Source of the DNA: Candidatus Woesebacteria bacterium
GTDB lineage: Bacteria; Patescibacteriota; Microgenomatia; UBA8517
Assembly: GCA_013426185.1 (NCBI GenBank)
Contig: CP058602.1
Span: 463,123-527,122 of the forward strand
Length of the DNA: 64,000 nucleotides
Direction: 5' to 3'
The first letter of the stretch is position 1, and each line of letters starts with the position of its first letter. This document shows, in pieces, positions 28,620 to 51,329 of this stretch. Made by a program: the position numbers and the translations under genes. The notes under the pieces were generated by a model. The model was not told where the DNA came from and did no database searches. It saw only the letters and a program-made list of their open reading frames with translations.

Positions 28620-28623
28620 AACT

Positions 28624-31241: not shown

Positions 31242-31296
31242 TTAACCAAGCCGATCTTAATGCCATGAAGCCCATCGCAAGAAGGGACTAAATACT

Positions 31297-34200
31297 ATGC
31301 CGACATTTTGGGAAACGCTAAAAACAAACATATTAAACCCTCTTGAAAAGGGTGTCTCTTCCGTTGGGCAAACTCTGGGCGATATTTTCAAACCAGTCGG
31401 GCAAACAGCCATTGATCTTTTCAAGCCAATAGCAGCTCTCAAACCAGAGCAATCGGAATTTGGCATTAAAACAGAGCAGGGCGAATATAAACCATACACG
31501 AATATCTATCTTGAAGCAGCAGCTCAGACTATTGGACTAGGCGCAAGAAAGACTGACTTTTGGGAGCGCCTCCCCCACGCCTACTACGGCACAGTCTTGG
31601 GCTTTGGAGCGGGGCTGGCAAAAGCCTTCACCTTCGGCTGGTGGAATCCAGAGCTTAAATTCGAACATGACGCAGCCCAAATGGGAGCAAATCTCGGCAA
31701 AGTTGAAGGCGACATTATAGGGACTATAGGAACATTCCTCGTGGGCGGAGAAATCGTTCAAGGAGCAGCCAGGAGCATTCCTGTAGTTGCTAGATTTGCC
31801 AAAATTGCACCCAAAACTTACTCACTACTGACAAACGGACTAACATTCGCAGGACTAGGTCAACTCCAAAAAGACGAATTCTATAAGGACGCTACCCAGC
31901 GTGCCACAGACTTTGGAGCTGATTTTGCCCTGGGAGGGGTATTCTCAATAGCGGGCATGAAGCCCAGTTATTTCAAATCGACAGGAATTATCGCTCCAGC
32001 AGCTTATGTCACCTCGCTTATAAAGGGAGACACTCCAGAGGACGCCTTAAAAAACACAGTCGCTGTCATCGGATTACACTCGGTTAACTATGCCGTCGCC
32101 AAAGTCTTCCCTAGCCAAGCCGAGCGAATCAGGCGCAATATGGAAAAAGCAGCCGAGAACGAACTGCGCACCACCCAAAAAGAAGCCAGGGCATTTCTGG
32201 GAGTGACGGAAAAATCGACGCCAGAACAAATAAAATCCGCCTGGAAACAAAAGGTTATTGAAATAACCAAGAAGTTTCCAGCTCAGGCATACCAGACGCC
32301 ACAACAGGCTGCCCGATTTAACCAAGAGTGGAACACTGCTAACAGAGCCTATGAGTTCCTGGCAAAAGTTCAGAACCCTACAGGCTACACAGGCAAAACT
32401 TTCAGCCAGGAATTCGAGGACTTATTTAGAGAGCTGTGGATCAATGTCCCAGACAAGAGAGCGCTAGTGGTAAGCGCCGTCAGAAACATGCCAGCAGGAC
32501 TCTCAATCCGCCCCACCCTAACTAACGAGCAGAGAGCCGAAATTATAAAAGGGCTTGGCGGAGAAAATGTAAGAACCAAGTTCGGACTGCCAGCAGGCAA
32601 GCTCTCAAACTCTGATCTTATAACCCTAGCAAAAGAGCAAAACATAAAGGTGACGCCATCCAAAGGCACTCCAGAACAGGCAATCGCTGAAGCAGCCAAA
32701 ACTCCCCCACCATCCAAACCAAAAGTTGAAAGAACCGAAATCTGGAATGTGCCAGGGGATCTCATGCCAGCAAGAGGCAAGCCAACCTGGAAGCACAGCA
32801 AGATGCTCTGGAACACCATGCGCAATCAATACGGCATGACCAATGTCTGGGGAAAAGATATCACCACTAACAAGGGGGCGGTTTCCTGGATTATAGACAC
32901 CCTCGAAAATGGACTGGCAAGCAAAAAAGACTTGCTGACTGAAGCCAGAAAAACCAAAGGGGTGCGCATGGACAGCCATCAATACAAGAAGCTCTACGCC
33001 ATGTTTAAGTCTAGAAACTACGACATCGAAGGCTACAAAAAAGTGATGGCAACTTTAAAAGGAATTAAACCTGCAGTGGTTGAAAAAACGATAGAGCCAA
33101 CACCTAAGGGAATGTTGGAGGAACTGGGCAACTATACCAAAGAGGCAGAAGTTATTGTCAGAGAGCCAAAAATTGAACCCAAAACTAAAATAAAACCGAT
33201 AGAAGAAGTGGTCACTCTTTATCATGGCACAACACCTGAAAATGCAGCCATAATTCGAAAAACAGGCTTCGAACTGAAACCGCCAGTGCATGGACGGCAA
33301 GTTATCGGAGAAGGGGTCTACCTTACTCCAACCAAGGAGGAAGCAGCCACCTTCGGTAAAGAAATAATCGAGGCGACACTTAAACCAGGAGTTAAAATCC
33401 TGCACCTAAATAACCCAGGTGAATACTATCAGCTCTGGCAAAAAGTGGCAAAAGAAGCAGGAGCATTCGGGGCAAAAGAAGTAAACATGGACAAAGCCAT
33501 AAGCGACTGGCTGAAAGTGAGAGGCTACGGCGGGATCGAGGTCAAAGGCTTCGGAACAAAAGGTGAAACCTATATCTCGATATTCGATCCAAAAAACATC
33601 GAGGTTAAAACAACTAAAGCACCAGTTGCAGCATCCGCCAAAAAAACGAAGGCTGAACCAAAAGTATTAGGTAAAGTGACTCCCCAGATCGAGCAGCTGC
33701 AGAAGAAGAAAGACGCTCTTGAAAAATTGCACTACGCCAACCCAGGCGATCAAAAGATCGTCAACGCAATAAAGAAAATCGATAACCAGATAGCCCAGCA
33801 ATTCAGCACCCAGGAGCAGAAGGCAGCCAAAGCCGAGCAAATCAGGCTTAAATACCGACCCGAAGAAAAGGAACTCCTGGATGCAGAGCGAGTCCCAAGT
33901 GTCGGTGAAATCCTAAAAAGCAAAAAATTCAAAGACAGAATCGCTGGCAAGGTAAAGGCATCAAAAGAAATGCGTGCTGACGAACTAACAACCACCCCAT
34001 CAAGAAACCCGCCACGACCACCGAAAGAAGAACCTCTCAGTCAAGCGCCTCCTCCGCCAGAAGGAAGCGGGTTGGAGGCAATCGACAAGATGGTCGGTAA
34101 GATCGGCGCACCACAAAAGATGACAGAGTGGTTCAAAGGTCTCAAACCGAAATTCAGTCGCAACTTTACAGACAGATTTGCAGCAATGAAGACTTTCGAG

Positions 34201-36684
34201 GAAAACCTGAGTAAAGCAGCAGGTAAACCGATAGACATCAACTCCAGCCCCTATGTAGGAATGCGGTTGTATGCGGGCAGATTTGGCACAATAGAGGCAG
34301 CTTTCCGAAATCTGCAAAAGATAGTGACGCCAGTGAGGAAATTCCGACCAGACTTCACCCGCTATGTGCTGGCGCAGCGTGCCATTGAAAGAGCCGATAG
34401 AGGCTTTGACAACCCAGCAGGCGTGACTAAAGATCAGGCAGAGCAAGCACTGGTAGAGTTAAAACCCAAAGTTGGAGATAAAGTATTCAAGCAGTTCGAA
34501 CAGGTAGGACAAGCGATCCAAAACTGGTCGATCAGAGAAATCCTAGAGCCGATGCGAGATACAGGACTTATAAGCAAAAAAGCCTTCAATGCCATAGTCG
34601 AAAAAAACAAGAACTGGATGCCATTCCATGTCCTCGACTACCTACCCGATGTGCATCAGGCAGACAAAATGCAGTCAGGCAGCGAAACCTTCTCAGTCAG
34701 TAAACAAGGAGTAATTAAAGGATTAAAAGGCACAGAAAAACAAATCCGTGACCCCTTCGAGTCGATAGTAGATAATTTAAGTAAAGCGGTGAGTTTGATC
34801 AAAAGAAACGAGGTAGCCCGTAAATTCATCGACCTGCGAAACAAATATCCAGAAGCCAAAGAAACCATCAAATACCTACATGGAGATGCCAAAGCACCAA
34901 GAGACTACGACACCATCAGTGTATTTATAAACGGCAAGTCGACCCGCTGGGCAGTACCAAAAGACTTAAGCGAGGCAATGCACGGCATGAATCCAGTCGA
35001 GGCAGGCGTCCTGGGCAAGTTGGCATTAGCATCAACCAAAGCATTCAAATCAGGCGTAACCACTTTATATATCCCATTCACCCTGACCAACGCTATCAGG
35101 GACTACCAAACAGCAACGATAGTCAATAAGTGGGGCTTTAATCCAGCCAACTGGCTGTCAGGATTCAAAGACGGCATAAAAGGAGCGTTTAAATGGGAGT
35201 CGAAAGCCTACACCGACTTTATGAAGAACCAGGGAGGTTACGGAGGCTACATCAGTAACGCCAGGCAGCTATCGATAGCATCAAAGGAATTGTTCACACC
35301 AACTTGGTGGATAAAAACCAAAGCAGTTATCAATCCGTTTAATTTAATCAGTAACTTTGCCGAGGCAGTAGAACTCGCACCCCGTCTGGGTATTTATAAA
35401 AAGGGTGTTAAAAAACCAGGAGTAACCGAGCTGGAAGCTGCCTTTGAAGCTAGAAACGCTACAGTCGATTTCGCAAAAGCAGGTAAAGAGATGCGGATTA
35501 TAAACCAGTGGATTCCCTTTGTGAACGCCAGATGGCAAGGATTACTCCGAGTCAAAGACGCCTTTAAAGAGCATCCGTTCAAGTCAGCAATAAAAGCGAT
35601 GGCGCTTATCGTTGCCCCAGGAGTAGCAACCTATTTTTACAATATCCTCAACCACGAAGAGCTGTGGGATGATATTCCGCAATGGGCAAAAGACCAATAC
35701 TTTATCATCATTCTCGGATCGGAAATTAACGAAGAAGGCAAAACAGTTCCAAAGGTGCTGCAAATTCCTAAAGGCGACATGGGGCAGATTTTTTACAACC
35801 CCATCGAATACGCCTTCGAGTATGTGAGAAAGCAAGAACCAGCCAACCTTCTGAAACTGGCAGTCGAGTGGACAAGCCAGCTTTCACCGATTCCTTTCAG
35901 TAGGGATGGCGAACTATCAGGCAGTGCATTCCTAGCAGGAGCGTTGCCCCCAGCTCTAAAAACTCTTGTTGAAGAAGTCACTAACATGAATATGTTCACA
36001 GGCTTCCCGATAATTCCCAGGAAACTGGAGAAAGTAGCACCAACAGAGCAATACAACGAAAAAACACCAGAGCTGATGGTGATGCTGGGTCGATCCCTCG
36101 GCTGGAGTCCAATGCGAATAGCGCATGTGTTAAGCGGTCTGTTTGGCTCAAGTAGCCGTTATGTCTACAACCCGACCGACCTGTTTGGAGCATCGGTTGA
36201 AAGATTTATAAGAACCCAGGGAGGAGCAAAGGAACGGGAAGCATGGAAGGTAAAAGACGATGCCGAGATTGGCTATAACACCACCCGACTGTTTGTTCAG
36301 CAAGCCCTGCAAGCAGGCGATCTGCAGAAAGCACAAAGCCTGGCTACCGAGTGGAACGCCAAAGCCCAGCAATTCATTCCCCTGATCGTGCCGTATTTAT
36401 ATGCCGATGATCCCAAAGAAGCGGTGAGCTTCCAAAAAAGCATCATGTTTGACCAATCAGACCTGCAACGGCTATTAAAACTTAATGCCCCGCAAACCAA
36501 ACCAGGAACAGCCGTAAAGCCACCTGTGGGGGCTGTGAGCGCACCAAAGACGCAAAACGACCCATTAGGGCTATTCGGAGGCGCAAGCGCAGCAACACCC
36601 ACACCACAGCCAACAATGGGGCAAATATTCCCGACAGGGGGCGGGGCAACAAACCAAAATGATCCGTTGGGATTGTTTAAATAA
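31297..36684 (+). CDS. giant (1795 aa) multidomain virion protein (tape-measure or ejection-protein candidate) with J-domain-like segment and putative H-Y-E ADP-ribosyltransferase-like domain
   Basis: Gly-rich hydrophobic N-terminal region; AFLGVTEKSTPEQIKSAWKQKV...ANRAYEFL J-like segment without HPD; LYHGTTPEN...GEGVYLTPT...IEV resembles the diphtheria-toxin/PARP H-Y-E core (SYHGTKPGY...GFYST...); C-terminal NDPLGLF x2. Confidence 0.5.
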   Translation: MPTFWETLKTNILNPLEKGVSSVGQTLGDIFKPVGQTAIDLFKPIAALKPEQSEFGIKTEQGEYKPYTNIYLEAAAQTIGLGARKTDFWERLPHAYYGTVLGFGAGLAKAFTFGWWNPELKFEHDAAQMGANLGKVEGDIIGTIGTFLVGGEIVQGAARSIPVVARFAKIAPKTYSLLTNGLTFAGLGQLQKDEFYKDATQRATDFGADFALGGVFSIAGMKPSYFKSTGIIAPAAYVTSLIKGDTPEDALKNTVAVIGLHSVNYAVAKVFPSQAERIRRNMEKAAENELRTTQKEARAFLGVTEKSTPEQIKSAWKQKVIEITKKFPAQAYQTPQQAARFNQEWNTANRAYEFLAKVQNPTGYTGKTFSQEFEDLFRELWINVPDKRALVVSAVRNMPAGLSIRPTLTNEQRAEIIKGLGGENVRTKFGLPAGKLSNSDLITLAKEQNIKVTPSKGTPEQAIAEAAKTPPPSKPKVERTEIWNVPGDLMPARGKPTWKHSKMLWNTMRNQYGMTNVWGKDITTNKGAVSWIIDTLENGLASKKDLLTEARKTKGVRMDSHQYKKLYAMFKSRNYDIEGYKKVMATLKGIKPAVVEKTIEPTPKGMLEELGNYTKEAEVIVREPKIEPKTKIKPIEEVVTLYHGTTPENAAIIRKTGFELKPPVHGRQVIGEGVYLTPTKEEAATFGKEIIEATLKPGVKILHLNNPGEYYQLWQKVAKEAGAFGAKEVNMDKAISDWLKVRGYGGIEVKGFGTKGETYISIFDPKNIEVKTTKAPVAASAKKTKAEPKVLGKVTPQIEQLQKKKDALEKLHYANPGDQKIVNAIKKIDNQIAQQFSTQEQKAAKAEQIRLKYRPEEKELLDAERVPSVGEILKSKKFKDRIAGKVKASKEMRADELTTTPSRNPPRPPKEEPLSQAPPPPEGSGLEAIDKMVGKIGAPQKMTEWFKGLKPKFSRNFTDRFAAMKTFEENLSKAAGKPIDINSSPYVGMRLYAGRFGTIEAAFRNLQKIVTPVRKFRPDFTRYVLAQRAIERADRGFDNPAGVTKDQAEQALVELKPKVGDKVFKQFEQVGQAIQNWSIREILEPMRDTGLISKKAFNAIVEKNKNWMPFHVLDYLPDVHQADKMQSGSETFSVSKQGVIKGLKGTEKQIRDPFESIVDNLSKAVSLIKRNEVARKFIDLRNKYPEAKETIKYLHGDAKAPRDYDTISVFINGKSTRWAVPKDLSEAMHGMNPVEAGVLGKLALASTKAFKSGVTTLYIPFTLTNAIRDYQTATIVNKWGFNPANWLSGFKDGIKGAFKWESKAYTDFMKNQGGYGGYISNARQLSIASKELFTPTWWIKTKAVINPFNLISNFAEAVELAPRLGIYKKGVKKPGVTELEAAFEARNATVDFAKAGKEMRIINQWIPFVNARWQGLLRVKDAFKEHPFKSAIKAMALIVAPGVATYFYNILNHEELWDDIPQWAKDQYFIIILGSEINEEGKTVPKVLQIPKGDMGQIFYNPIEYAFEYVRKQEPANLLKLAVEWTSQLSPIPFSRDGELSGSAFLAGALPPALKTLVEEVTNMNMFTGFPIIPRKLEKVAPTEQYNEKTPELMVMLGRSLGWSPMRIAHVLSGLFGSSSRYVYNPTDLFGASVERFIRTQGGAKEREAWKVKDDAEIGYNTTRLFVQQALQAGDLQKAQSLATEWNAKAQQFIPLIVPYLYADDPKEAVSFQKSIMFDQSDLQRLLKLNAPQTKPGTAVKPPVGAVSAPKTQNDPLGLFGGASAATPTPQPTMGQIFPTGGGATNQNDPLGLFK

Positions 36685-36690
36685 AAATCT

Positions 36691-37803
36691 ATGAAAAAAC
36701 TAACCTTACCGACAACATTCAATCAGAACGACCCCAGGTGGAAAAACAGCCCACTGGGAACAAAAGGGACAATCGGGCAATACGGCTGCCTAATGTGTGA
36801 CGGAACGATGGTAGTTAACTACTACGGCTTTCGAGAAACACCGCTGACCATGAACGAAAAGCTGACTCAAAACGGAGGATATGATAAAGGCAACCTGCTG
36901 ATATGGAGCGCAATCCCCAGGCTGTTTGCGGGACTAAAATACTCAGGAAAGTGGTCGAATGACAATCCGCTCACCCAGGCGCAGATGGATCAAATTCGAA
37001 GTGCAATTGATAAAGGATATCCAGTATTTCTACAGATCGATACCATCCCCTCAACCAGTGGCTTAGATGAGCATTGGATACTGGCAATCGGCTATGACGG
37101 TGACGACTTTATAGTACAAGACCCTTGGGACGGAGCAGAAAAAAGGATAACAAGCTGGGGTATAACCCCACAAAAATTGATCTATTCTTGGTGCTGGTAT
37201 GAGGGAAAACCATCAGAAACAGATGTAGCGGAAGGCTGCCTCGTGCCAAATACTCCAGAATGGCGGGAAAAATACGAGCAAATAGTTGGATCAGCCACGA
37301 AATGGGCGGAGGCACTAAAAGTTCTAGAGATCGCCGACGACCCCAACACTACCCCTGTCGACAAAATTAAGAGTGTTATTGCAGGGTATAAATCAAGGGA
37401 AACTGACCTGGGAAACAAGCTCAGAGACAAGCAAAAAGAGCTGGATGTGGCAAACCAGGAGATAAAGAACCGCTCCGAACAAGTTAGCAGACTCGAAAAG
37501 TTAGTGACAGACAAGGAAAAGTATTATAAAGACCTGCTTAATGCGCTTAAATCGGACATTAAAAATCTGCCAAAAATCGTGGAGGAAGCCCAGGGTCGTA
37601 TAGGGGTGCTGGAGGGGCAGCTAGATGAGGCTAATAAAGCCAAAGGCAGAGCGCTAAATGAGGCAGCAGAGTACAAAAGCGAACTTGAAGCCTGCCAGAA
37701 AGGTCAACTCCCAGAGCCAGCCAAGAATTTAATAACCAAAGCAGCGAACTTTTTACTCAACCTAGTAATAGGCATTTTCAAAAAAGGAGGTGAGAAAACA
37801 TGA
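36691..37803 (+). CDS. endolysin candidate: papain-like (C39/CHAP-like) cysteine peptidase N-domain plus coiled-coil C-terminus
   Basis: QNDPRW...YGCLMCDG...DEHWILAIGYDGDDFIVQDPW suggests a Cys/His papain-like fold; sits before the holin-like genes. Confidence 0.4.
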   Translation: MKKLTLPTTFNQNDPRWKNSPLGTKGTIGQYGCLMCDGTMVVNYYGFRETPLTMNEKLTQNGGYDKGNLLIWSAIPRLFAGLKYSGKWSNDNPLTQAQMDQIRSAIDKGYPVFLQIDTIPSTSGLDEHWILAIGYDGDDFIVQDPWDGAEKRITSWGITPQKLIYSWCWYEGKPSETDVAEGCLVPNTPEWREKYEQIVGSATKWAEALKVLEIADDPNTTPVDKIKSVIAGYKSRETDLGNKLRDKQKELDVANQEIKNRSEQVSRLEKLVTDKEKYYKDLLNALKSDIKNLPKIVEEAQGRIGVLEGQLDEANKAKGRALNEAAEYKSELEACQKGQLPEPAKNLITKAANFLLNLVIGIFKKGGEKT

Positions 37804-38021
37804 TAGCAGTTAGCCAAAAATACCAGTTAACCTGGAACGACATGGAAAAAGTAGGTAAAGGACTTCTAATCGCATTAGCGGGCGCAGCCTTAACATACCT
37901 GACGGAGCAAATCCCCAACATTGATCTAGGAGAATGGACACCGATAGTGGTAGCAATCTGGTCGGTAATTGTAAACGCAGCTAGAAAATGGCTGTCGGAG
38001 ACAAGATACATTGAACAGTGA
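37800..38021 (+). CDS. holin candidate (two TM helices)
   Basis: LLIALAGAALTYL / WTPIVVAIWSVIV; adjacent to the lysin; SD AAAGGAGGTGA. Confidence 0.45.
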   Translation: MIAVSQKYQLTWNDMEKVGKGLLIALAGAALTYLTEQIPNIDLGEWTPIVVAIWSVIVNAARKWLSETRYIEQ

Positions 38022-38280
38022 AAACACTATGGCAAAATCAAAAGCAACAACTAGCATGGATATAATCGAAAGAGTTGCCAAACTTGAGGAGCGGGTGGAT
38101 AGTGGCTTTGGTTACATCAAAGAGGAACTAAAAGAAATTAAGAATAATCACCTACACACCCTCCAAGCCGATGTGAGCGACCTTAAAATTAAGGTTAATA
38201 CGCTGATGGTCAAAATGGGAATAATTGTGGCGGTGGTGACAATTGTGATCGACATCGCCATTCGATTAATCTTCAGATAA
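38011..38280 (+). CDS. coiled-coil protein with C-terminal TM (holin or spanin-like)
   Basis: C-terminal MGIIVAVVTIVIDIAIRLIF. Confidence 0.35.
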   Translation: MNSENTMAKSKATTSMDIIERVAKLEERVDSGFGYIKEELKEIKNNHLHTLQADVSDLKIKVNTLMVKMGIIVAVVTIVIDIAIRLIFR

Positions 38281-38287
38281 AAGAAGA

Positions 38288-38551
38288 CTACTTCTCCTTC
38301 TCACCAAACCTCTCGCTGTTTTTTAGTAATCGATTCAGGGCTTTATTTAAATCCTGGACGGTCTCAACCTTCAAGATATGAAACGAGGAAGAATGAACAT
38401 TCCCCACAAACACTAAAGTATCCCCCTCATTAAGCTCAAGGTCTTTTCTCATTTTGGCGGGGATCACAACCTGACCCTTCGCACCTAGAGTGGATGTGCC
38501 GTAAATGGCAGCGTTTTTTTTGATAGCCATAAAATCTGGGATTTTTTTCAT
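38288..38551 (-). CDS. AbrB/SpoVT-domain regulator (candidate lysogeny regulator or antitoxin)
   Basis: GAKGQVVIPAKMRKDLELNEGDTL matches the swapped-hairpin AbrB/MazE motif. Confidence 0.6.
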   Translation of the reverse strand: MKKIPDFMAIKKNAAIYGTSTLGAKGQVVIPAKMRKDLELNEGDTLVFVGNVHSSSFHILKVETVQDLNKALNRLLKNSERFGEKEK

Positions 38552-38650
38552 CCTGCCTAACTGCGGGCAGGAAACAGTCTCCTTGATAGAGAATTATACA
38601 CTAGCGCACAAAAGAAAGCGAACATCTCATCTACTCCCCACCAGAGATTA

Positions 38651-38929
38651 TTAAGTGCTGTCGAGGTGTTGTTTGATAAAATCCAGAAGAAGCTCGAAGC
38701 CTTCAGCGTGATTTGTCTGAACCTTTTTCAAAATCTCTTTGCACTTCGCAACATACTCCACTGAGGTTTTATAGGTCTCGGAGTCCTCGCCGAACTGCTT
38801 ACGCCTGCGCTCCTTAACCTCATCGAGCCAGTTATACAGCTCTTCCACAGTCGACTCAAACTCGTCCGAGAGAACATAGGCACGAGCAATAATTTCCTTT
38901 GCTTTAACCATATTACGAGGGATCGCCAT
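38651..38929 (-). CDS. hypothetical protein, partner of the AbrB-like gene
   Basis: Co-directional ORF between the AbrB-like gene and int. Confidence 0.35.
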   Translation of the reverse strand: MAIPRNMVKAKEIIARAYVLSDEFESTVEELYNWLDEVKERRRKQFGEDSETYKTSVEYVAKCKEILKKVQTNHAEGFELLLDFIKQHLDST

Positions 38930-38952
38930 ATTTCCAATTATACAATCAAACT

Positions 38953-40023
38953 TTACTTCTTAAGAGAAATATTGAAGGAAAAGCCGTCGTTCCGCTCGGT
39001 TAGAGTGTAATCAAAACGCTCGTCACCATGCAATCTGAAAGACTTAATCTCCTCTTTGACACTCTCGATAATAGCATGCGGGTCTTGGGACTTGCGAATA
39101 AGCGGGTGCTTAAGCATCGCCTGGCGGAGATCGTCGGTGACCATGTGAGTATAGATCATGGTAGTATCAACCTTGCGGTGACCAACAATCCGCTGGACTT
39201 TTGAGATAGCCACATCCTGACGCAAGAGTTCGGTTATAAAACTATGGCGAAAACTATGGGCGTGAAAGCGCCGATCGACATGAAGCCCAGCTCGTTTGGC
39301 ACGCTCTCGAATAGTCTTATTAACCATAGACTCGCCGATGCGTGAATTAGGGCGGGTGCGGGCAAAATGCATAGTTATAAACATCGGCGAAGAAGGTGGA
39401 ATCTCACCCCTGTTTTTAATCCACTCCCGCAATTTCTCAATCATATCAGGAGGAATAGGCACGATGCGCTGCTCATCAGTTTTAGTCTCACGGATAATAA
39501 ACTCATTCGTGCCAAAGTTAAAATCGCCCACATTTAGGGCGATTACTTCTCCAACACGGCAACCAGTCTTGGCAAGGAACTCCAGGAGCAAACCCCACAT
39601 GTAGTCGCATTTAATATACTTGGGATGCAAATCCCGCTCGTAGTTATTTTTATGAGGGGGCGGATTGATGATTTTCTCAATCTCTTCCAACGAAAGGGTC
39701 TGGTATAAAACGATTTTCTTCTTGGGACGAAGCTGGTTCAGGTTAGAAGTGCAATCCTCTAAAGGCAAATGCTTCTCGGCAATAAGGAAGCGGATGAATG
39801 AGTTGAGGGAAGTGATTAGGACATGGATATAGTTAGGAGACAAATCGCTTCTTTTATACTCCCGCAGGAGCAGTCGTATATTTTCAAACGAGAACTCCCG
39901 ACCACCCAGGTCACGAAAGAAGCGCTCTAGCCACTGCCTCCGCACTTTGCATGTATGATCGGTGAGGTCTCGGTCATAGCGAATAAAATCAATGTATTCC
40001 GAGAGGTATTTTTGATAGCTCAT
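38953..40023 (-). CDS. int: tyrosine recombinase / phage integrase
   Basis: Catalytic R (TGCRVGE), HxxR (HAHSFRHS), Y (TMIYTHM); N-terminal SAM-like core-binding domain. Confidence 0.9.
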   Translation of the reverse strand: MSYQKYLSEYIDFIRYDRDLTDHTCKVRRQWLERFFRDLGGREFSFENIRLLLREYKRSDLSPNYIHVLITSLNSFIRFLIAEKHLPLEDCTSNLNQLRPKKKIVLYQTLSLEEIEKIINPPPHKNNYERDLHPKYIKCDYMWGLLLEFLAKTGCRVGEVIALNVGDFNFGTNEFIIRETKTDEQRIVPIPPDMIEKLREWIKNRGEIPPSSPMFITMHFARTRPNSRIGESMVNKTIRERAKRAGLHVDRRFHAHSFRHSFITELLRQDVAISKVQRIVGHRKVDTTMIYTHMVTDDLRQAMLKHPLIRKSQDPHAIIESVKEEIKSFRLHGDERFDYTLTERNDGFSFNISLKK

Positions 40024-40044
40024 GGTTCAATTATAAGGGGCAGG

Positions 40045-40071
40045 TTTCCAACTTCTCCAACATTTCCAACT
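40045..40071. repeat. three tandem 9-mers (TTTCCAACT TCTCCAACA TTTCCAACT) just upstream of int
   Basis: Read directly from the sequence; possible integrase arm or regulator sites. Confidence 0.4.
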
Positions 40072-40185
40072 AAAATTATAACGACTTTAGGCAGGGGGCA
40101 AAAAAGGGCTTGACTTTTACTTAGAAATGTGTTTCACTGGTATTTAGCACTGGGAAAAGTCCAGGGACTTTAAGAAGAAAAGAAG

Positions 40186-41133
40186 CTAACTTACCTCCGA
40201 GAACTCCGATAACTCATCCAAAAAAAGAACCCCTCGATGCGCTAAAGATACCTCACCAGGCGTTAGGTTAGATCCTCCACCAATCAAGCCAATTCTACTT
40301 GTAGTGTGATGCGGACTACGAAAAGGCCTTGTTGTGATTATTGAATCTCCAGTTGATAAATTACCAGTTACAGAATAAATTTTAGTTACCTCAAGAGCTT
40401 CTTCCTCAGTTAAAGTAGGCAAAATCCCGGGCAAGGCTCGAGCTAGCATAGTCTTTCCCGAGCCAGGAGTTCCTCGCATAAAAATATTGTGCGCACCAGC
40501 TGCCGCTATTTCCATAGCTCTTTTTGCCTGTTCCTGGCCAATAATTTCAGCAAAATCAAATTCAGCTTGGGCAACCTTAAGTAAAGAAGAAAGATCAACT
40601 TTTGGCGCAGGTTCTATTTCCAAAGATCCCCTAAAAAACCTCACCAAAGAAAGTAAGGATTCAACAGGATAGACTTTGATATCAGAGACAATTGAAGCTT
40701 CCTCCTGATTAATCTTGGGAACAAAAACTCTTTTAATCTTTTTTTCTCGAGCAAGATAACTAACAGGTAAAATCCCATTGGTATGGCGCAAACTGCCATC
40801 AAGAGATAGTTCACCAAAAAATAAAGAATCAGAGGTATCAGCTGAAATTTGTCCTGAAGCAATCAAAATTCCAAGAGCAATAGGCAGATCGTAAGCAGGG
40901 CCAACTTTGGGAAGATCAGCTGGCGCCAAATTAACCGTAATTCTTCCTTCTGGAAATTTAGCTCCCGAATTCTTTAAAGCTGACCTAACTCTTTCTTTTG
41001 ACTCCTCAACCGCCTTATCAGGAAGGCCCACAATATTAAACGCCGGTAAACCTTCCTCAGGCACATCTACCTCCACCTCAACCAAACGACCTTCAAGCCC
41101 TAAAGTGGCGCCTGAAATAATCTTGGCAAGCAT
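40186..41133 (-). pseudogene. comM: comM / YifB-family Mg-chelatase-like AAA+ gene, 3'-truncated (stops 8 codons after Walker B)
   Basis: Lon-like N-domain, GTPGSGKT, VLFLDELSEF then SEVS-stop; about 190 C-terminal residues are missing relative to ~500-aa ComM. Confidence 0.7.
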
Positions 41134-41135
41134 AT

Positions 41136-41831
41136 CTATTTCTTATTCAATTTGTCGTACCACTCATTTAAGATCCTTGACACCAAGTCTTTTGCCCCCA
41201 AACCAAAAGACAAACCCACAGCCAAGACAAAAGTATAAGTTAAACCTTGTAAAAAGGTGCTAATTAAAGTTTGGGCGATTTTCAACTGGTCAAGCGCCGC
41301 AAAAAAGGCTATCAGTAAAATCAACCATCTGGCAAGAACAGAAAGCGGCTTGGCAATATTTTTGTCAATGGAAAGAACTGCCCCCTTCACTAACTTCTCT
41401 ACTAGATTGGCTACTAAATAGCCAAGAACCAAAACAAAAATAGCAGCCGCAATACTTGGCAGATAACCTAAGATAGAAAACAAAACCTGCGAGACGCTAC
41501 TTAAACCCAAAATATCAAGCGCGGAAAGAAAAAATATTAAAACAACCAACCATCTTAAGACTATAGCCACCAAATCTACCAAGCTAAGATTAATCTCGGC
41601 TTTTTTAAGGACTTTCTCCGCCCCAATAGTTTTTGAAAGGTTTTCTACTCTCGCCAATCTGAGAAGCTTGACTATCAAAACCTGAATCCAAGAACCAAGA
41701 GCCAAGCCGATAGCAAAAACAACAATTGCCCAAAAGAGCTTTAAGGATGCGTCAAAGACCAAAGGCCAAACTCCTATTGTAGAACCAGCAAAGACATTGC
41801 TTAAATATCCTAAACCTTGCATTATTTTCAC
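41136..41831 (-). CDS. membrane protein with repeated conserved-TM-helix (MscS-associated type) segments
   Basis: Hydrophobic repeats; K-rich linker. Confidence 0.35.
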   Translation of the reverse strand: MKIMQGLGYLSNVFAGSTIGVWPLVFDASLKLFWAIVVFAIGLALGSWIQVLIVKLLRLARVENLSKTIGAEKVLKKAEINLSLVDLVAIVLRWLVVLIFFLSALDILGLSSVSQVLFSILGYLPSIAAAIFVLVLGYLVANLVEKLVKGAVLSIDKNIAKPLSVLARWLILLIAFFAALDQLKIAQTLISTFLQGLTYTFVLAVGLSFGLGAKDLVSRILNEWYDKLNKK

Positions 41832-41901
41832 CCCCTTTCTCTACTTTTATCTTGAAGCTTATTTATGAGGAAGTCAAGAATAAAAAAAGTATTTTACCAA
41901 A

Positions 41902-42220
41902 GGCTTGCCTTGGAGAGTGGTAAGCCGGATTCTGTTTCTAAGCAATCATCAGTCTTATGCCCTGCCTTAGGACTCGGGAAAGGCACCTCAAGCGTCCAAC
42001 TCGCAGGTTGCAGCGGAGGGGATTGCCCGTTTCACCCTTTCTCCTTCTTTAGGAAAGAGAAAGACTCGTCTCTGTTGCTCTCGCAGAGTGTCAATTCACT
42101 CCACGTCTTCTTACGAAGAACCAGCCCTTTCGGGTCACCGCTTGCGCGGCGCATCTTGCCTTTCAGCTGTCCGGACTTTCCTCCCCCCAATGGAGGGCGA
42201 TTGCTCCCTCTCCAAGGCAA
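41902..42220 (-). ncRNA. rnpB: RNase P RNA, bacterial type A
   Basis: Minus strand reads GCCTTGGAGAG...GGAAAGTCCGGAC...CGCGCAAGCGG...GCAACAGAGAC...AAGGGTGAAACGGG...ACAGAATCCGGCTTACC...CTCTCCAAGGC (P1 pairing, P4 halves, J11/12); GC-rich island in AT-rich DNA. Confidence 0.85.
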
Positions 42221-42254
42221 ATGTATTTTATCAAAAAACGAGGTTTTTATCAAA

Positions 42255-43226
42255 CTAACGGCGCAAATAGAGTCTGACTAACACACTCAAAGTTAAATAA
42301 ACAGGAATGGCCATTAAGGCTCCAACAACTCCTGCTATTTTTGCTCCAATTGCCAAGCAAAGAAGGACTACTACGGGATTAATTCCCGTTGATTTTTCCA
42401 TGACCTTAGGAACTAGAAGATGATTTTCCAGCTGTTGAACCACTAGATATAAAACTGCAACCGCTAAACCCATTAGAGGTGAGATACCCAAACCCACAAT
42501 CACAGCGGGCACGGCCGAGACTAAAGGCCCTATTATTGGCACTATCTCGAATACGCCTGCGAATATAGCAAGAGGTAAAGAAAAAGGAACTCCCAAAGCA
42601 AAAAGCCCTAAAAACGTAAGGAACCCTACAGAAAACATCAGAATTAGCTGCCCCCTCAGCCATGAACCCAGACTTTTTTCCCAAAGAACCAAAAAATTCT
42701 TCACCTTTTTACAAATTGAAATATCAAAAAAATTATCCAACATATTATCCAGCTTGTCTCTTGAAAGAAGAAGATAAAAAGCTATTACCAGCACAGAAAC
42801 AACACCTAACACGTTGGAAAAAACAGAAAAGGTAATTTTTATAAGAGAACTAGAGAAAGAACCTAACTGACTAGCCAATTCGTTTATTAAAGGTTGCCCA
42901 ATCATCGGCAAAACCAAGATATTATCAATCAAATTAGGCAAAACAGACAAAAGATGAGATGTCTGTTCAACTAAAGGAGGAATAAGAGACGCTACTGAGA
43001 ATGATAATAATCCTAGCACCAAAACATAAACCAGAAGTACGCTTAGGCCCCTCGGTATTTTCAACTTAGATAAGCGACTAACCAGAGGATTTAAAACCGC
43101 CATTATCAAAAGAGCAATAAAAAAGACCAAAATTATGTCGCGAATAAAATACAAAAACCACAAAAACGACAAAAACAAAACAGTAAAAATAATAGTCCTG
43201 TGAGAAATCTCAATCTTTTGTGGCAT
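42255..43226 (-). CDS. AI-2E family transporter (PerM/UPF0118)
   Basis: 8-TM topology and typical AI-2E composition. Confidence 0.65.
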   Translation of the reverse strand: MPQKIEISHRTIIFTVLFLSFLWFLYFIRDIILVFFIALLIMAVLNPLVSRLSKLKIPRGLSVLLVYVLVLGLLSFSVASLIPPLVEQTSHLLSVLPNLIDNILVLPMIGQPLINELASQLGSFSSSLIKITFSVFSNVLGVVSVLVIAFYLLLSRDKLDNMLDNFFDISICKKVKNFLVLWEKSLGSWLRGQLILMFSVGFLTFLGLFALGVPFSLPLAIFAGVFEIVPIIGPLVSAVPAVIVGLGISPLMGLAVAVLYLVVQQLENHLLVPKVMEKSTGINPVVVLLCLAIGAKIAGVVGALMAIPVYLTLSVLVRLYLRR

Positions 43227-43231
43227 AACTA

Positions 43232-44233
43232 TTAACTATAATACCAATTTTTCACCGCTTTTTCTACTTCTTTCAACCAGTCGCCATTGCTAATATCAAA
43301 CCATATAATTCTCTTGTCTTTTTTAAACCAGGTCATCTGACGCCTAGCATAAGCAAACTCATCACTCACCCAGTTCTCAATCATCTCCTTTTTATTCATT
43401 TTTCCTAAGAGATAATTTTTTATATTTTTATAACCCAAAGTGTCCATTGAATGAAAAGACCAATCAATACCATCTCTAAGTAACTCTAAAACTTCTTTTT
43501 TAAAACCAACTCTTAATCTTTCAATTACTCTTTTTTTAATTCTATTTTTTAATATCGGAAGTGGAGCCATTAGACCAATAAACAAAAAGTCAGAGTCTTT
43601 GTCCCAAGGTAAAACCAAAGATACTTTTTTACCCAAATTTCGAGCTCTCCATTGAGCTACTTCTATTGCTCTAACTAACCGCCTTGGATTTTTGCGATCT
43701 GACAAATTAAGAGATGCTGCTTTTTTAGGATCAAGCTGAGCCAGTTTTTCAAAAAGTTCGCCGACCGAAAGATCTGATAACCACCTCCTCAAATCATCAT
43801 CACGAGGAACCAAAACATTGGGGATGCCGTCAACTAAACTTTTGAGATAAAAACCACTACCTCCCACTAGAACTGGCATTTTATCCCTTAAGAGAATATT
43901 TTTAACTATTGGAACAGTCTTTTTAAGATAAGTAGCAACACTAAAATCCTCTTTTGGCGAAACCAAGTCATAACCCCAGATTTTGACACCCGAGATTTGA
44001 TAACAACCTATCTTCTTCTTTTTTAGACTATCTTCAGAGTAAGTTAACTTTGCGCCAAGAGGCAAATCCTTACCAGTCCCTATATCCATCTTTTGATAAA
44101 CTTGTCTTGAGTCAACAGAAACTATTTCTCCCAACAAATCTTTTTTATCCAAAGACAGTGCTTTAATCAAATAAATTGCCAATTTTGTTTTCCCTGTCGC
44201 TGTCGGGCCACAAATAACTAAGACTTTTTTCAT
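43232..44233 (-). CDS. miaA: tRNA dimethylallyltransferase
   Basis: VLVICGPTATGKTKLAI...SVDSRQVYQKMDIGTGK. Confidence 0.85.
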   Translation of the reverse strand: MKKVLVICGPTATGKTKLAIYLIKALSLDKKDLLGEIVSVDSRQVYQKMDIGTGKDLPLGAKLTYSEDSLKKKKIGCYQISGVKIWGYDLVSPKEDFSVATYLKKTVPIVKNILLRDKMPVLVGGSGFYLKSLVDGIPNVLVPRDDDLRRWLSDLSVGELFEKLAQLDPKKAASLNLSDRKNPRRLVRAIEVAQWRARNLGKKVSLVLPWDKDSDFLFIGLMAPLPILKNRIKKRVIERLRVGFKKEVLELLRDGIDWSFHSMDTLGYKNIKNYLLGKMNKKEMIENWVSDEFAYARRQMTWFKKDKRIIWFDISNGDWLKEVEKAVKNWYYS

Positions 44234-44234
44234 A

Positions 44235-45023
44235 TTAACTTGAGGCGCTGGTGTATTTTGTCAAAGCAAAATTCCAAAATTTAATCGAAATAAAGAAGAA
44301 AACAAAACCAAAAAGAACAGAAACCACTATGAATCTAGGAGAAAGAAGATTCATCAAAGCTTTGGCAGGAAAAGCAATCATTATGCCAAGAGGAATAAAG
44401 AAGGTCAAAAAGGAAGCCACTTTTTTGCCGTAAACTTCAAGAGGGAACCTCGCCATTGTCTCAAGATCGCGATAAATCATCACCATGTGATCTATCTCCA
44501 AAGTAATAATACTCAAAGAAGCAATAATCGTATGAAGAGAAAAAGAAATAAAAAGACCGTTTAATAAAAGTAAAACAAAAAGAATAACTTGATAAAAATC
44601 AGGTGATAAAGGGCGCGCAGCATAAAATAAAGCCAAAATTAAAGGCGGAATTGTAACAAGGTCGATAAAATCAAAACCGCCAAAGATCACTCTAAAAAGA
44701 GGGCTAATGGGCTTACTTAAAATTAAATCAAAATTTCCAGAGACAACTGATTGACGGAAAGTGTAAACATTACGGAAAAACATCTGCGAAAGACTACTTA
44801 TGAGATTAAAAACAACAAAAAAAAGAATTGCTTGGTCTTTTGAATAAGAACCTATGCCATTTGTTTTTTTAAGAATAAAAAACAAAAAAAGGATAAAGAA
44901 AATAAAACGCAAGATTTTCCCCGTCAAAAAGACAAAAAAGCCTAACTTACGAGTTAAGTGAACAAAAAAACTTTTTTTAGATAAGATAGACCAGATATAA
45001 AGATATCTTCTAACGATTTTCAT
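44235..45023 (-). CDS. ABC-2 type transporter permease
   Basis: Six-TM permease, operon with ATPase. Confidence 0.55.
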   Translation of the reverse strand: MKIVRRYLYIWSILSKKSFFVHLTRKLGFFVFLTGKILRFIFFILFLFFILKKTNGIGSYSKDQAILFFVVFNLISSLSQMFFRNVYTFRQSVVSGNFDLILSKPISPLFRVIFGGFDFIDLVTIPPLILALFYAARPLSPDFYQVILFVLLLLNGLFISFSLHTIIASLSIITLEIDHMVMIYRDLETMARFPLEVYGKKVASFLTFFIPLGIMIAFPAKALMNLLSPRFIVVSVLFGFVFFFISIKFWNFALTKYTSASS

Positions 45024-45025
45024 TT

Positions 45026-45829
45026 TTATCTTCCTTCAGCGTTGTAAGCCTTAAGCCCCAAGCGCCAAACTTTCAAAAGGGCAAAACTTAAAACCACAAA
45101 CCAGAAAAAGGCAATGATAATTCCTTTAAAAATCAAAAATTGACTCACTTTGCCTAGGTAAACCTGAAGCGGAAAGAAAAGAAGATAATAAAAGGGCAAA
45201 TAAGAAAAAATCTTAAAAAGAAACCCAGGAAGAATATCAAGCGGGAAAATTCCTCCCGAGAAAAACTCAAGAATAATCACAATAAAAAGAAATTGAGCCG
45301 CCCAAGCATTCTCGGGCATAAAAAAAGAAATCATATTCACCAAAAACAAAATTACAAAGAAAAGAAGAACCGCCAACACTAAAGAAACAAGAAATGAAAT
45401 TAAAACTAAAGGGTCGCCTTGAAAATAAAGCGGCGGTTTAAGCCAAAGGTAAAGAAGAAATATTTCAACAGCCGAGAAACCTATATTTAAAGCCTTGCTT
45501 GAAATATCACGACAAAACCAATACTTAAAATAATTAACTGGTTTAAGCAAAAGGTTGGTCAAATTGCCGCTTGATATCTCCCCTGCCACATCAACAGCGC
45601 GAGAGGAAAGAACAATTGCTCTTAAGATCAAGATACCAAAAACATAAGTTAAAATCTTGGCTCGGTCATAGCCAAAAAAGGCTTGAGAAGAATTAGAAAA
45701 GATAGTGTTCCAAAAAGAAAAAATAACTAAAATCTGAATTACATTTCTCACCCTCCACATCAAAAAATTAAACCTGTAAGCAAATTCTTGGTTAAAAGAA
45801 ACCTTAAAAATCTGCCAGTACTTTCTCAT
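45026..45829 (-). CDS. ABC-2 type transporter permease
   Basis: Six-TM permease, operon with ATPase. Confidence 0.55.
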   Translation of the reverse strand: MRKYWQIFKVSFNQEFAYRFNFLMWRVRNVIQILVIFSFWNTIFSNSSQAFFGYDRAKILTYVFGILILRAIVLSSRAVDVAGEISSGNLTNLLLKPVNYFKYWFCRDISSKALNIGFSAVEIFLLYLWLKPPLYFQGDPLVLISFLVSLVLAVLLFFVILFLVNMISFFMPENAWAAQFLFIVIILEFFSGGIFPLDILPGFLFKIFSYLPFYYLLFFPLQVYLGKVSQFLIFKGIIIAFFWFVVLSFALLKVWRLGLKAYNAEGR

Positions 45830-46824
45830 TTTGATTTTCTCAAAACACCTTCCTTAAAGACTCTCTTAATTACATCTTCTATTGGCTCCTCTTCTATAGT
45901 AATGTCCGCAACAGGGAAATTCTGTAAGATCTCGGCTGTTGCAATGGCAGCGGTTTCTCTTGGTATTAAAAGGACTACTTCTGGAAAATCAATTTTTTTA
46001 ACCTTGCCTATCTCTTCAAATTTCTTGAAATCAGTGCTATCTGAAAGATAAACTTTGACTAATTTTTTCTTGGCGAAAGTTTCAATCAAAAAGCTAAGCT
46101 TGCCATCAAAAGCTATTTTGCCTTTGTTAATAACAATAACTCGCTTGGCAACTCCCAAGATATCATCCATATTGTGCGAAGTTAAAATCATAGTAGCCCC
46201 ACGCCTGCGATTATAATCAAGCAAAAATTCCCTAATTTTTGTCTGCGCCAAAATATCAAGCCCAATAGTTGGCTCGTCAAGAAAAAGAACACTTGGGTTA
46301 TGAATAAGCGCCGCGACAAGCTCAAGACGCATCCTCTGCCCCAAAGAAAGCCGCCTCACAGGAATATTAAGCAGATTCTCAACATCAAGTAATTCCACAA
46401 GTTCTCTTAAACTTTTCTCATAATCTCTCTTAGATAATTCATAGATAGCTCTGTTTAAATCCAAAGTGTCAATTGCAGGCAGATCCCACCACAATTGGTT
46501 CTTCTGCCCCATAACAAGGCTGATCTTCTTTAGATAATCAGCTTTTCTTTGCCAAGGATCAAACCCTAGAACCTGAACTAGACCGGAAGAGGGGTAAAGA
46601 AGCCCAGAAAGAATTTTCAAGGTTGTTGTCTTGCCCGCACCATTTGGCCCAATGAAACCAACCAACTCACCTTCATCAATAGAAAAAGAAATCTCATCCA
46701 AAGCTCTTACTATTTTTCTTGTTGGATTAAATAAAGAAGAGAGACCACCAAGAAAGCCTTCCTTTTTAACATTAACCACAAATTCTTTTGAGAGCTTATC
46801 CACTAAAACTACTTTCTCCATCAA
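45826..46824 (-). CDS. ABC transporter ATP-binding protein
   Basis: Walker A GPNGAGKTTT, signature LSLGQRMRL, Walker B LFLDEPT. Confidence 0.85.
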   Translation of the reverse strand: MMEKVVLVDKLSKEFVVNVKKEGFLGGLSSLFNPTRKIVRALDEISFSIDEGELVGFIGPNGAGKTTTLKILSGLLYPSSGLVQVLGFDPWQRKADYLKKISLVMGQKNQLWWDLPAIDTLDLNRAIYELSKRDYEKSLRELVELLDVENLLNIPVRRLSLGQRMRLELVAALIHNPSVLFLDEPTIGLDILAQTKIREFLLDYNRRRGATMILTSHNMDDILGVAKRVIVINKGKIAFDGKLSFLIETFAKKKLVKVYLSDSTDFKKFEEIGKVKKIDFPEVVLLIPRETAAIATAEILQNFPVADITIEEEPIEDVIKRVFKEGVLRKSK

Positions 46825-46860
46825 GCCTAGTATACTACAAAAATCAAAAACAACGCGCTA

Positions 46861-46948
46861 TTGACAAGGTCCGTCCTTGTCAAAGCTAAAACATAGAAAA
46901 AGAAGATAAAAATAGCTTCGAATATTCTGACAAGGTACGTCCTTGTCA
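46861..46948. promoter_or_regulatory. paired palindromic operators TTGACAAGG-N5-CCTTGTCAA (46861..46883) and TGACAAGG-N5-CCTTGTCA (46928..46948) in the ABC-operon promoter region
   Basis: Perfect 9-bp and 8-bp inverted repeats with identical half-sites, 67 bp apart, between hup and the ABC ATPase start. Confidence 0.5.
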
Positions 46949-46953
46949 ACAGG

Positions 46954-47229
46954 TTAACGAGAGACTTGCTCTTTTAGTCTTTTGCCGGGAGTGAATTTGG
47001 GAGAACGATGAGGTTTGATATGAACCAGTTTATCTGTCTTCGGGATTTTGACTGTCTTACCTTTCCTTGAAGAAACCCTAAAAGTGCCAAAACCAGAGAG
47101 AACTACTTTTTCACCTTTTGAAAGGATTCTACCAATCTCGCTTAAAAAAACATCAACAGCTTCCTCTGCTGCCTTCTTTGTAAGATGCGCCTTTCTTGCT
47201 ACAAGATCAACTAATTGTTTTCGTGTCAT
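46954..47229 (-). CDS. hup: DNA-binding protein HU
   Basis: HU/IHF fold sequence GFGTFRV...arm KPHRSPKFTPGK. Confidence 0.85.
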   Translation of the reverse strand: MTRKQLVDLVARKAHLTKKAAEEAVDVFLSEIGRILSKGEKVVLSGFGTFRVSSRKGKTVKIPKTDKLVHIKPHRSPKFTPGKRLKEQVSR

Positions 47230-47283
47230 ATTGTTTTAAGAATATTACAAACTATCAAAAATGTCAAGTTAATGACATATTCT

Positions 47284-48270
47284 TTAAAAACCGTAAGAAG
47301 AAAGAGGTGCATTACCAATTCTTATTCTAGGTAAATCTAACCTTTGACCTTTACAAAGAATATTACCATACTTTGTGGTAAACGCCGCTTTATAACCAAG
47401 ACTATTCAAATATTTTTCGGCTTGAAGAGAATCAATACCATAAGGATAAGCAAAGATTTTTGGTGAATTAAAAAAATGATCTTTCAATTGAGAATCAGCA
47501 GTTGAGATCTCATATTCTACCTGCGAAATATTAGACTTAACATTTTTATGAGACCAAGTGTGGTTAGCAAATAAGACCAAATCTTTCATAGAATCCATCT
47601 CGTCCCAAGCCAAATAACCAGCGTTTGAGACAAGACCTGTGGGAACAAAAACAGTCGCTTTAAAATTAAATTTCTGCAAAATAGGATAAGCATTAAGATA
47701 AAAATCTTCATAAGCATCATCAAAAGTCAAAAGAACACTATTTTTGGGAATCTCGACCCCGCTATCAAAAAAATTTACGAGATCAGACATTGATATTACC
47801 TTATAACCTTTGTCAAAGAGGTATTTCATTTGTCCCTCAAAATAATCTGTATAAACAGTTAAAGAGGTCTGATGATCTTCACGAGCAGATTCTTTAGATT
47901 GAATATGGTGATACATCAAAACTGGGAGACGAACACATGGCCCGAAGAGCTTATTCATCTCGTCAAAAGACAAAGGTCTTTGAGTTGGAGAGGGGGTAGG
48001 TGCTAAGTTAGAAAAAACTGGAGAATTATCCAAAACAAACTTAGGTTTAGGAGTTTCAGAAACACTATTGGTGACAGAAGAAGGAAAATTATTTTCTCTA
48101 CCTCTTATCACACGAAAGGCAAAAAAAGAAAATAAAAAAGCGGATAAAAAGAGAAACAAAAAAAGGCTATTTTGCCACCGTGGTTTCCGTTGCTCTGACT
48201 TCTCTGATAACTGTAACTTTGATTTGTCCTGCATATTCAGCTTCTTTTTCAAGTTTTCTTGCAATATCAT
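47284..48270 (-). CDS. polysaccharide deacetylase (NodB homology) with N-terminal TM
   Basis: LLTFDDAYEDFY...ATVFV; HTWSH. Confidence 0.7.
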   Translation of the reverse strand: MILQENLKKKLNMQDKSKLQLSEKSEQRKPRWQNSLFLFLFLSAFLFSFFAFRVIRGRENNFPSSVTNSVSETPKPKFVLDNSPVFSNLAPTPSPTQRPLSFDEMNKLFGPCVRLPVLMYHHIQSKESAREDHQTSLTVYTDYFEGQMKYLFDKGYKVISMSDLVNFFDSGVEIPKNSVLLTFDDAYEDFYLNAYPILQKFNFKATVFVPTGLVSNAGYLAWDEMDSMKDLVLFANHTWSHKNVKSNISQVEYEISTADSQLKDHFFNSPKIFAYPYGIDSLQAEKYLNSLGYKAAFTTKYGNILCKGQRLDLPRIRIGNAPLSSYGF

Positions 48271-49420: not shown

Positions 49421-49519
49421 ACCAATTTAAGGAGAAAAAAGGCCTAGCCCCTTTTTAAAAAGGAGAAAAAGAAACAATCTTGTTTCTTAAGTAGGACCAT
49501 ATTTTCCTCCACTCTTATT

Positions 49520-50152: not shown

Positions 50153-50157
50153 AAAAA

Positions 50158-51240: not shown

Positions 51241-51329
51241 TGCTACCCTTTTAGCATAGTCTTTGATAAAATACAAGAGGAAAGAGAGAATTTAGAATTT
51301 AGATATTAGAAATTAGGATTTGCTACGCT

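Follow-up and report, generated by a model that had tools for sequence, protein, structure and literature searches.

A temperate tailed phage very probably integrated inside comM of a Woesebacteria chromosome, with attachment sites at the Walker B codons

The DNA analysed here, referred to below as the window, is a stretch of 64,000 nucleotides of contig CP058602.1 from a Candidatus Woesebacteria bacterium (Patescibacteria). It contains a long block of phage genes which abuts a shortened copy of comM. We consider it very likely that the block is a temperate tailed phage of 40,566 bp, integrated inside comM of the Woesebacteria chromosome. A prophage insertion in this gene had been proposed in an initial annotation made from the sequence letters, and the proposal is supported by reciprocal junctions, a short core shared by the two junctions, empty sites in relatives, the phage genes themselves and an integrase located beside the junction.

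The truncated comM encodes 315 residues. In agreement with what had been described from the letters, the open reading frame (ORF) call and Pfam place a Lon-like N-domain, the Walker A motif (GTPGSGKT) and the Walker B motif (VLFLDE) in this ORF, after which there are eight further codons, for LSEFSEVS, and a stop. The N-domain (PF13541, ChlI/Lon-like) is matched over its full profile at residues 20-142 (8.7e-47). For the AAA+ domain (PF01078, Mg_chelatase) the match covers profile positions 1-120 of 207 only, so that the ORF is cut in mid-domain, and the C-terminal domain (PF13335) is not detected by Pfam in the window ORF. The remainder of the AAA+ domain beyond Walker B is missing from the window ORF and is located on a separate 3' fragment, which is described below. 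No record of the exact 315-residue product is present in a large gene catalogue. The break lies at the edge of the phage block, as had been noted, with a gap of 162 bp (40024..40185) between the ORF and an integrase (PF00589), and the base composition steps at the junction from 46.7% GC (1..40210) to 37.2% (40218..64000).

By searching 5.8 billion proteins for homologues of the window ComM we found that the nearest (98, 94, 92 and 90% identical) are all 508 residues long and all carry PF13335. The window protein matches residues 1-311 of intact P0001, a 508-residue homologue, at 98% identity. This identity is unbroken through LFLDE and is then lost, with LSEFSEVS and a stop in the window where the intact protein reads FPEFPRNVLESL. 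ComM is therefore shortened relative to the full-length protein, as was first claimed, though 201 residues have gone by comparison with the 508-residue homologues rather than the 'about 190' that had been estimated. Around intact comM the genes are arranged in the order IPPT, AI-2E transporter, mechanosensitive (MS) channel, comM, a 124-residue gene, D-Tyr deacylase and HhH-GPD glycosylase, and the host side of the window has the same order of IPPT, AI-2E transporter and MS channel ahead of comM. The empty site of contig L010 aligns with window positions 44489..40202 at 97.7% nucleotide identity, and the homology ends at 40202-40211. Intact 508-residue comM genes are also present in L001, L002, L011 and L012. 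The closest relatives (L010 and L001) thus keep the intact gene with the same neighbours instead of encoding an equally short ComM, and the insertion proposal holds on this point. Since the flank is 97.7% identical to that of the empty-site relatives, the insertion is likely to be recent.

The 3' part of comM was not found inside the window by tblastn with intact P0001; the phage runs past the left edge. Using the left-most complete protein of the window (353..1036) we retrieved a public contig from Logan SRR6825874, L008, that is 100% identical to window positions 1..1481 and reaches 7.4 kb further left. On its minus strand L008 carries a Mg_chelatase fragment followed by the 124-residue gene, the D-Tyr deacylase and the HhH-GPD glycosylase, as downstream of intact comM in L010 (L010 4255..7772 aligned to L008 7085..3575). 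The fragment is the 3' part of comM, with 204 codons on the minus strand, 352 bp to the left of the window start. The expectation that the missing fragment would lie on the minus strand at the other end of the phage, together with a shared repeat, is thereby borne out, the core being present at both junctions. When one base is restored, window codons 1-304 and the L008 remnant together give a protein of 508 residues, of which 504 are identical to P0001; for the remnant itself 203 of the 204 residues match the P0001 C-terminus. The base concerned is a single-base deletion, causing a -1 frameshift, in a run of five A at approximately L008 6772, about comM codon 404 (CCAAAAAC to CCAAAAC). The deletion may mark the onset of decay, or it may be an error in the sequence.

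The attachment sites were defined by a three-way alignment at base level, in which attB is GGGGTTCTTTTTTTGGATGAATTTCCTGAGTTTCC, attR, in the window, is GGGGTTCTTTTTTTGGATGAGTTATCGGAGTTCTCGG and attL, in L008, is GAGGATTCCGATTTCTGGATGAATTTCCTGAGTTTCC. The three sequences share a single stretch, TGGATGA, after which there is an A or a G and then TT. The codons of the core are those of Leu305, Asp306 and Glu307, the latter two being the acidic pair of Walker B. The second copy of the core is at L008 7062..7068, which corresponds to window coordinates -352..-346, and the size of the element given above follows from the positions of the two cores. The reconstructed attP reads ...CGATTTC TGGATGA GTTATCGG..., and outside the core its arms match those of attB at only 17/35 and 15/35 bases; such a loose likeness is usual at the sites of tyrosine integrases. 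The phage side directly past the core (GAGTTCTCG ... GCTTCT ... TCTTCTTAAA) is conserved in both of the related prophages described below. It would seem likely that the phage was inserted by conservative site-specific recombination with strand exchange within the 7-bp core. The phage arm of attL (L008 7085..7115) contains an in-frame AAGAGGTT-ATG ahead of the 3' part of comM, and gene callers therefore predict a fusion of 167 residues, formed of MKPFLFVLRGFRF and comM from LDEFPEF. A start supplied by the phage as a designed feature was considered for the 3' fragment and rejected, as the Daviesbacteria phage has TAG at the position of the ATG.

The same codons of comM are occupied elsewhere. 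P0087, a ComM of 312 residues that is 76% identical to the window protein, ends in ...LFLDEVSEFS and is found in five assemblies (L003-L007) of a groundwater Woesebacteria-like lineage, where comM is followed by an integrase 83% identical to that of the window. The late genes in these prophages have the same order as in the window, encoding proteins of 357 residues, 1787-1809 residues (with an LPD38 domain), 353 residues and 443 residues. In Daviesbacteria (JAQTZF010000001.1, a single contig of 1.1 Mb; locus L017) a 316-residue 5' fragment of comM adjoins an integrase that is 84% identical, and a 203-residue 3' fragment, in which PF13335 is found, is located at the far end of a prophage of ~37.4 kb, so that both junctions are on one contig. 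The phage-side arms are conserved across the three phages, which shows a preference for this site throughout the lineage. The Walker B motif of the Daviesbacteria 5' fragment (L017 ~5810..5820) is LFLNE and not LFLDE, with TTGAATGAA at attR against CTGGATGAA at attL, a difference that either arose by mutation once the phage had been inserted or is left over from the heteroduplex formed during recombination. The occupation of the same codons in two further Microgenomates lineages, by phages with integrases of 83-84% identity, indicates that this conserved coding sequence is the specific target of the integrase module.

The integrase family comprises eight clusters at >=56% identity in the whole catalogue. 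Relatives of the terminase large subunit (TerL) do not all share this target, and the suggestion that they do was rejected: L021 and L026, whose TerL proteins are 87% and 72% identical to that of the window, have serine recombinases (L021 5..1669; L026 11591..13231) instead of the tyrosine integrase, and L027 and L028 have no comM nearby. As the TerL relatives with serine recombinases or other ends are not beside comM, targeting follows the tyrosine-integrase module, and the presence of serine recombinases in close TerL relatives indicates that integration modules have been swapped within the phage group. L021 also carries cargo-like genes for a P-type ATPase, a cysteine desulfurase-like aminotransferase and DsbA. 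A second, recurrent break in comM is seen in other Woesebacteria at around codon 326, where the intact sequence ...QPLEDGKVSI becomes ...QPMEDGYA or ...EDGYSYSIV (P0035, P0065, P0086, P0116, P0025 and P0107; L024 5981..7215, from JGI 3300022690). In L024 the break is followed directly by a 56-residue HTH_17/MerR-like gene and small ORFs. These breaks point to a different mobile element at a second site in comM.

Table 1. Coordinates of comM, the attachment site and the prophage genes in the window.
Feature	Position	Strand	Details
attR core TGGATGA	40214..40220	- (comM strand)	From base 2 of codon 305 to base 2 of codon 307
Phage arm of attR and region upstream of the integrase	40024..40213	-	Junction sequences of the window, L003-L007 and L017
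Truncated comM	40186..41133	-	315 residues; host codons 1-307 at 40213..41133; eight phage-derived codons (LSEFSEVS) at 40189..40212; stop at 40186..40188
Prophage body	1..40213		Right-hand 40.2 kb of the element; left end 345 bp before window position 1
Rad52-like recombinase	353..1039	+	PF04098 listed for the identical L008 gene; left, early end of the phage
Replication initiator-like protein	1036..1842	+	PHROG replication initiation families
ParB-N6/N4 DNA methyltransferase fusion	5810..7108	+	PHROG 498 at 5.7e-124; PF01555, PF02195
Terminase large subunit, gpA type	7717..9291	+	PHROG 675 at 2.2e-95; PF05876 at 8e-20
Portal-like protein, 623 residues	14202..16073	+	PHROG 332, 156; weak PF23899 SU10_portal match
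Major capsid protein, SU10 type	19606..20772	+	PF17236 at 7.6e-47; PHROG 1328 at 1.8e-39
866-residue protein, C-terminal amidase/endolysin-like domain	23788..26388	+	PHROG 822 at 1.7e-25
Tail fibre-like protein, 443 residues	28624..29955	+	PHROG tail fibre families, best 2.6e-23
Giant 1795-residue protein, LPD38 domain	31297..36684	+	Size of 1787-1809 residues kept in related prophages
Peptidase_C39-like protein, 370 residues	36691..37803	+	PF13529 at 3e-11; probable cell-wall hydrolase
Two small membrane-type ORFs	37800..38280		After the C39-like gene; from the ORF list
Two small genes by the integrase	38288..38929	-	92-residue ORF without family match; 87-residue MazE/AbrB-like DNA-binding protein
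Tyrosine integrase, 356 residues	38953..40023	-	PF00589 at 2.9e-31; PHROG 1 integrase at 2.8e-46

The genes of the element are those of a tailed phage (Table 1). All of the large phage ORFs are open, and their order, which begins with the early genes and ends with the integrase, is normal for a phage. An HTH protein, an 86-residue ORF and the Rad52-like protein are at the left end and the tyrosine integrase is at the right. The PF00589 match of the integrase spans profile positions 26-168 of 172, and 190 bp separate the gene from the core. TGCRVGE, HAHSFRHSF and GHRKVDTTMIYTH are invariant between the integrases of the window and L003; by our own reading of the sequence, these would contain the R...HxxR...H/W...Y catalytic residues. 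The 92-residue ORF and the MazE/AbrB-like gene next to the integrase are candidate regulators. In a set of 50,697 deposited phage genomes no close relative of the phage is present: their integrases are at most 33% and their TerL proteins at most 29% identical to those of the window. No relatives of the Rad52-like protein at the left end were found in IMG/VR or JGI contigs, and the early region of the phage is mosaic. A protein 100% identical to TerL (P0121) is on record from a 901,682-bp contig named Candidatus Woesebacteria bacterium, which is consistent with the 'AT-rich small-genome lineage' that had been suggested as host.

Several other features of the window were observed. The prophage is 9.5 points higher in G+C than the host (46.7% against 37.2%), an unusually large difference; a phage that is richer in G+C than its host is the opposite of the usual expectation. 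Within the tail fibre-like gene, secondary blastn matches reveal imperfect repeats of ~82 bp with 77% identity at 28930..29182. The 1795-residue LPD38 protein has a weak, sub-threshold PARP-like match at residues 635-688. On the host side, a bacterial RNase P RNA of class A is located at 41905..42216 on the minus strand (full model, E 3.7e-31). It is missed at the default threshold because its score of 99.3 bits is just below the gathering score of 100, and the mechanically called '138-residue ORF' at 41865..42281 is in fact the RNase P RNA gene.

Two alternatives would remove the insertion altogether. A misjoining of phage and host contigs at a short shared sequence could be suspected from the small size of the core shared by both sides, only 7 bp, from the missing catalogue record for the 315-residue product, and from contig L016, an independent contig that extends just four bases beyond the core. 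Those four bases, however, are host-type TTTT and not the TTTC expected of attP. The reciprocal junction, moreover, exists and is exactly complementary, and the same architecture is present in five other assemblies and on the single 1.1-Mb contig of another lineage. Such a chimera is very improbable, given that the split is found again in independent assemblies and in other lineages, and that in one case a single contig contains both junctions. The presence of several ComM-like proteins of 312-358 residues among the homologues might instead suggest a naturally short paralogue that merely lies beside a phage, with no insertion. Yet the closest homologues have 508 residues, the 312-residue P0087 itself precedes a related integrase and phage, and the forms of 328-332 residues break at another fixed codon beside foreign genes. 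This explanation, to which we would give virtually no chance, is refuted by the abrupt end of homology at codon 307 and by the remnant of comM at the other end of the phage.

The other two alternatives accept the insertion and differ in what has become of it. In one, the prophage is fixed and decaying, the element being immobile and comM an eroding pseudogene. The frameshift in the 3' remnant, the change of D to N in the Daviesbacteria fragment and the lack of a free form in IMG/VR, JGI metagenome contigs and GTDB genomes are in favour of this. The sole lesion in comM is nevertheless one base, the large ORFs of the phage are open and in normal order, and the 97.7% identity of the flank to empty-site relatives speaks for a recent insertion. 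In addition, Logan contigs of 40,987 and 41,408 bp with close relatives of the integrase are of the size of a phage genome, and these could be free genomes. Decay of this kind is possible, though we think it unlikely. The other alternative is a reversible switch (active lysogeny), in which precise excision under some conditions would restore comM and so turn recombination of incoming DNA on or off. Listeria phi10403S in comK acts as such a switch, and the arrangement would resemble that element or the Bacillus skin and SPbeta elements. The insertion is intragenic and exact, with halves that sum to the 508-residue gene without loss of bases, the integrase ORF is intact and conserved, and phage copies from four sequencing runs show 99.9-100% identity, a sign that the element may be recent or active. 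In SRR6186653 (Logan) the phage contigs end at the att core on both sides, as a de Bruijn graph does when several forms of a junction coexist, with L009 ending exactly at the outer edge of the core and L016 four bases past it. Excision would not, on the other hand, restore a working comM in the population represented by L008, as the remnant there is frameshifted, and the Daviesbacteria 5' fragment has LFLNE in place of LFLDE; no attP form was found in the databases searched and no excisionase was recognised among the small phage ORFs. The contig ends can also be explained otherwise, for instance by strain polymorphism in the T-run. They were considered as proof of coexisting excised forms and are suggestive only, since the right-end contig has host-type bases and strain polymorphism is possible. 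A working switch is doubtful, and we rate it as quite unlikely.

We therefore prefer the reading of a temperate phage integrated in comM, against which several points have to be weighed. The left junction comes from another assembly (Logan SRR6825874), and its identity to the window covers the 1,481-bp overlap only. Both junctions were read from assembled contigs rather than from mapped reads. Excised or circular forms would be expected to contain attP, but exact attP and attR patterns and patterns of the conserved arms were absent from IMG/VR, JGI metagenome contigs and GTDB genomes, which speaks neither for excision nor against it, and the small phage ORFs, as said, include no recognisable excisionase. 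Finally, the loss of ComM activity and any effect that it may have on transformation in Woesebacteria are predicted from the domain content.

With regard to function, sensor 1, the arginine finger, sensor 2 and the C-terminal domain are all missing from the 5' fragment, which is for this reason predicted to be unable to act as a hexameric ComM helicase. This prediction draws on established knowledge of ComM and of the AAA+ fold. The fragment would accordingly not drive branch migration in natural transformation, and a lysogen would be a comM knock-out, which is how lysogeny might be tied to the loss of a competence function, as the initial annotation put forward. ComM promotes both the integration and the deletion of large heterologous segments during transformation (PMC11441513). 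In Acinetobacter lacking ComM, acquisition and deletion of large inserts are cut ~100-fold or more, while allelic exchange is reduced only ~eightfold (PMC11441513), and it has been proposed that mobile elements target competence genes to escape curing (Croucher et al. 2016, PMC4774983). By analogy with the comM elements of Gammaproteobacteria, loss of comM may shield the prophage from deletion by transformation with DNA of phage-free relatives, with DNA uptake left intact.

The initial annotation had likened the insertion to the AbaR islands of Acinetobacter. AbaR islands make a target-site duplication; the window element, unlike them, is a phage with a tyrosine integrase and a 7-bp recombination core. 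Among the subset of ORFs scanned, no Tns or Tni transposition genes were found at its ends, where the genes are those of the integrase, the HTH protein, the 86-residue ORF and the Rad52-like protein. The shared target gene was thus correctly recognised, but the mechanism does not carry over, as the AbaR islands in comM of Acinetobacter baumannii are Tn7-like transposons (Tuffet et al. 2024, PMC11441513) whereas integrase-mediated site-specific recombination is indicated here. What the two have in common is the target, comM being the single competence gene whose loss blocks the deletion of large inserts and spares DNA uptake and some allelic exchange. A closer precedent is provided by the integrase-bearing elements found in comM at an orthologous position in five gammaproteobacterial species (Croucher et al. 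2016, PMC4774983), namely that of Aggregatibacter actinomycetemcomitans HK1651 (integrase CF65_00446) and its relatives in Acinetobacter baumannii, Mannheimia haemolytica, Francisella philomiragia and Pseudomonas syringae. As here, a site-specific integrase accompanies a large element inside the coding sequence of comM, and escape from removal by transformation has been proposed; the position of those elements is orthologous, though imperfectly conserved, across distant hosts. In contrast, the hosts here are Patescibacteria (Woesebacteria and Daviesbacteria) and the element is a complete tailed phage.

Prophages are also known in other competence genes, with Listeria phi10403S in comK, streptococcal prophages in comYC and prophages of Bacillus or Streptococcus in comFA (PMC4774983). 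These likewise are temperate phages with an integrase and with attB inside a competence-related coding sequence. The present case differs in that ComM acts after DNA uptake, and, for one population at least, the frameshift in the L008 remnant makes a working switch less likely. For Patescibacteria, a report on groundwater Paceibacteria describes prophages averaging 43.7 kb and also cites Absconditabacteria, Gracilibacteria and Saccharibacteria (PMC12455944). Those prophages resemble the window element in being ~40 kb elements in ultra-small genomes, but neither att sites nor targeting of comM appear to be defined for them, and the hosts here are Woesebacteria and Daviesbacteria. In the literature searched, which covers the field incompletely, we found no earlier report of comM targeting in Patescibacteria.

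A bolder reading can be formulated, although we hold it to be improbable. The tyrosine-integrase module would define a small lineage of Microgenomates phages, and the attachment site at Walker B of comM would have been chosen as it is near-invariant across host classes. If hosts of this kind rely on DNA uptake as their source of nucleotides, as has been supposed, comM may be the sole competence gene that a phage could destroy to block its own removal by recombination without starving the host. In a stronger version still, reversible excision would toggle the recombination of incoming DNA.

The mechanism itself is not new; what is of interest is the host group, the att sites and the fact that the same Walker B codons are hit repeatedly. 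The phage biology of Candidate Phyla Radiation bacteria is still mostly inferred; the base-resolved att sites and the paired empty and occupied loci described here for a prophage of this group make lysogeny in such uncultured bacteria testable with read data. The disruption of comM by mobile elements has served as an argument that transformation purges genomes of parasites and that the parasites resist (PMC4774983, PMC11441513). With a tailed phage that has no close relative among deposited phages using this tactic in Patescibacteria too, the argument would reach far beyond the Gammaproteobacteria.

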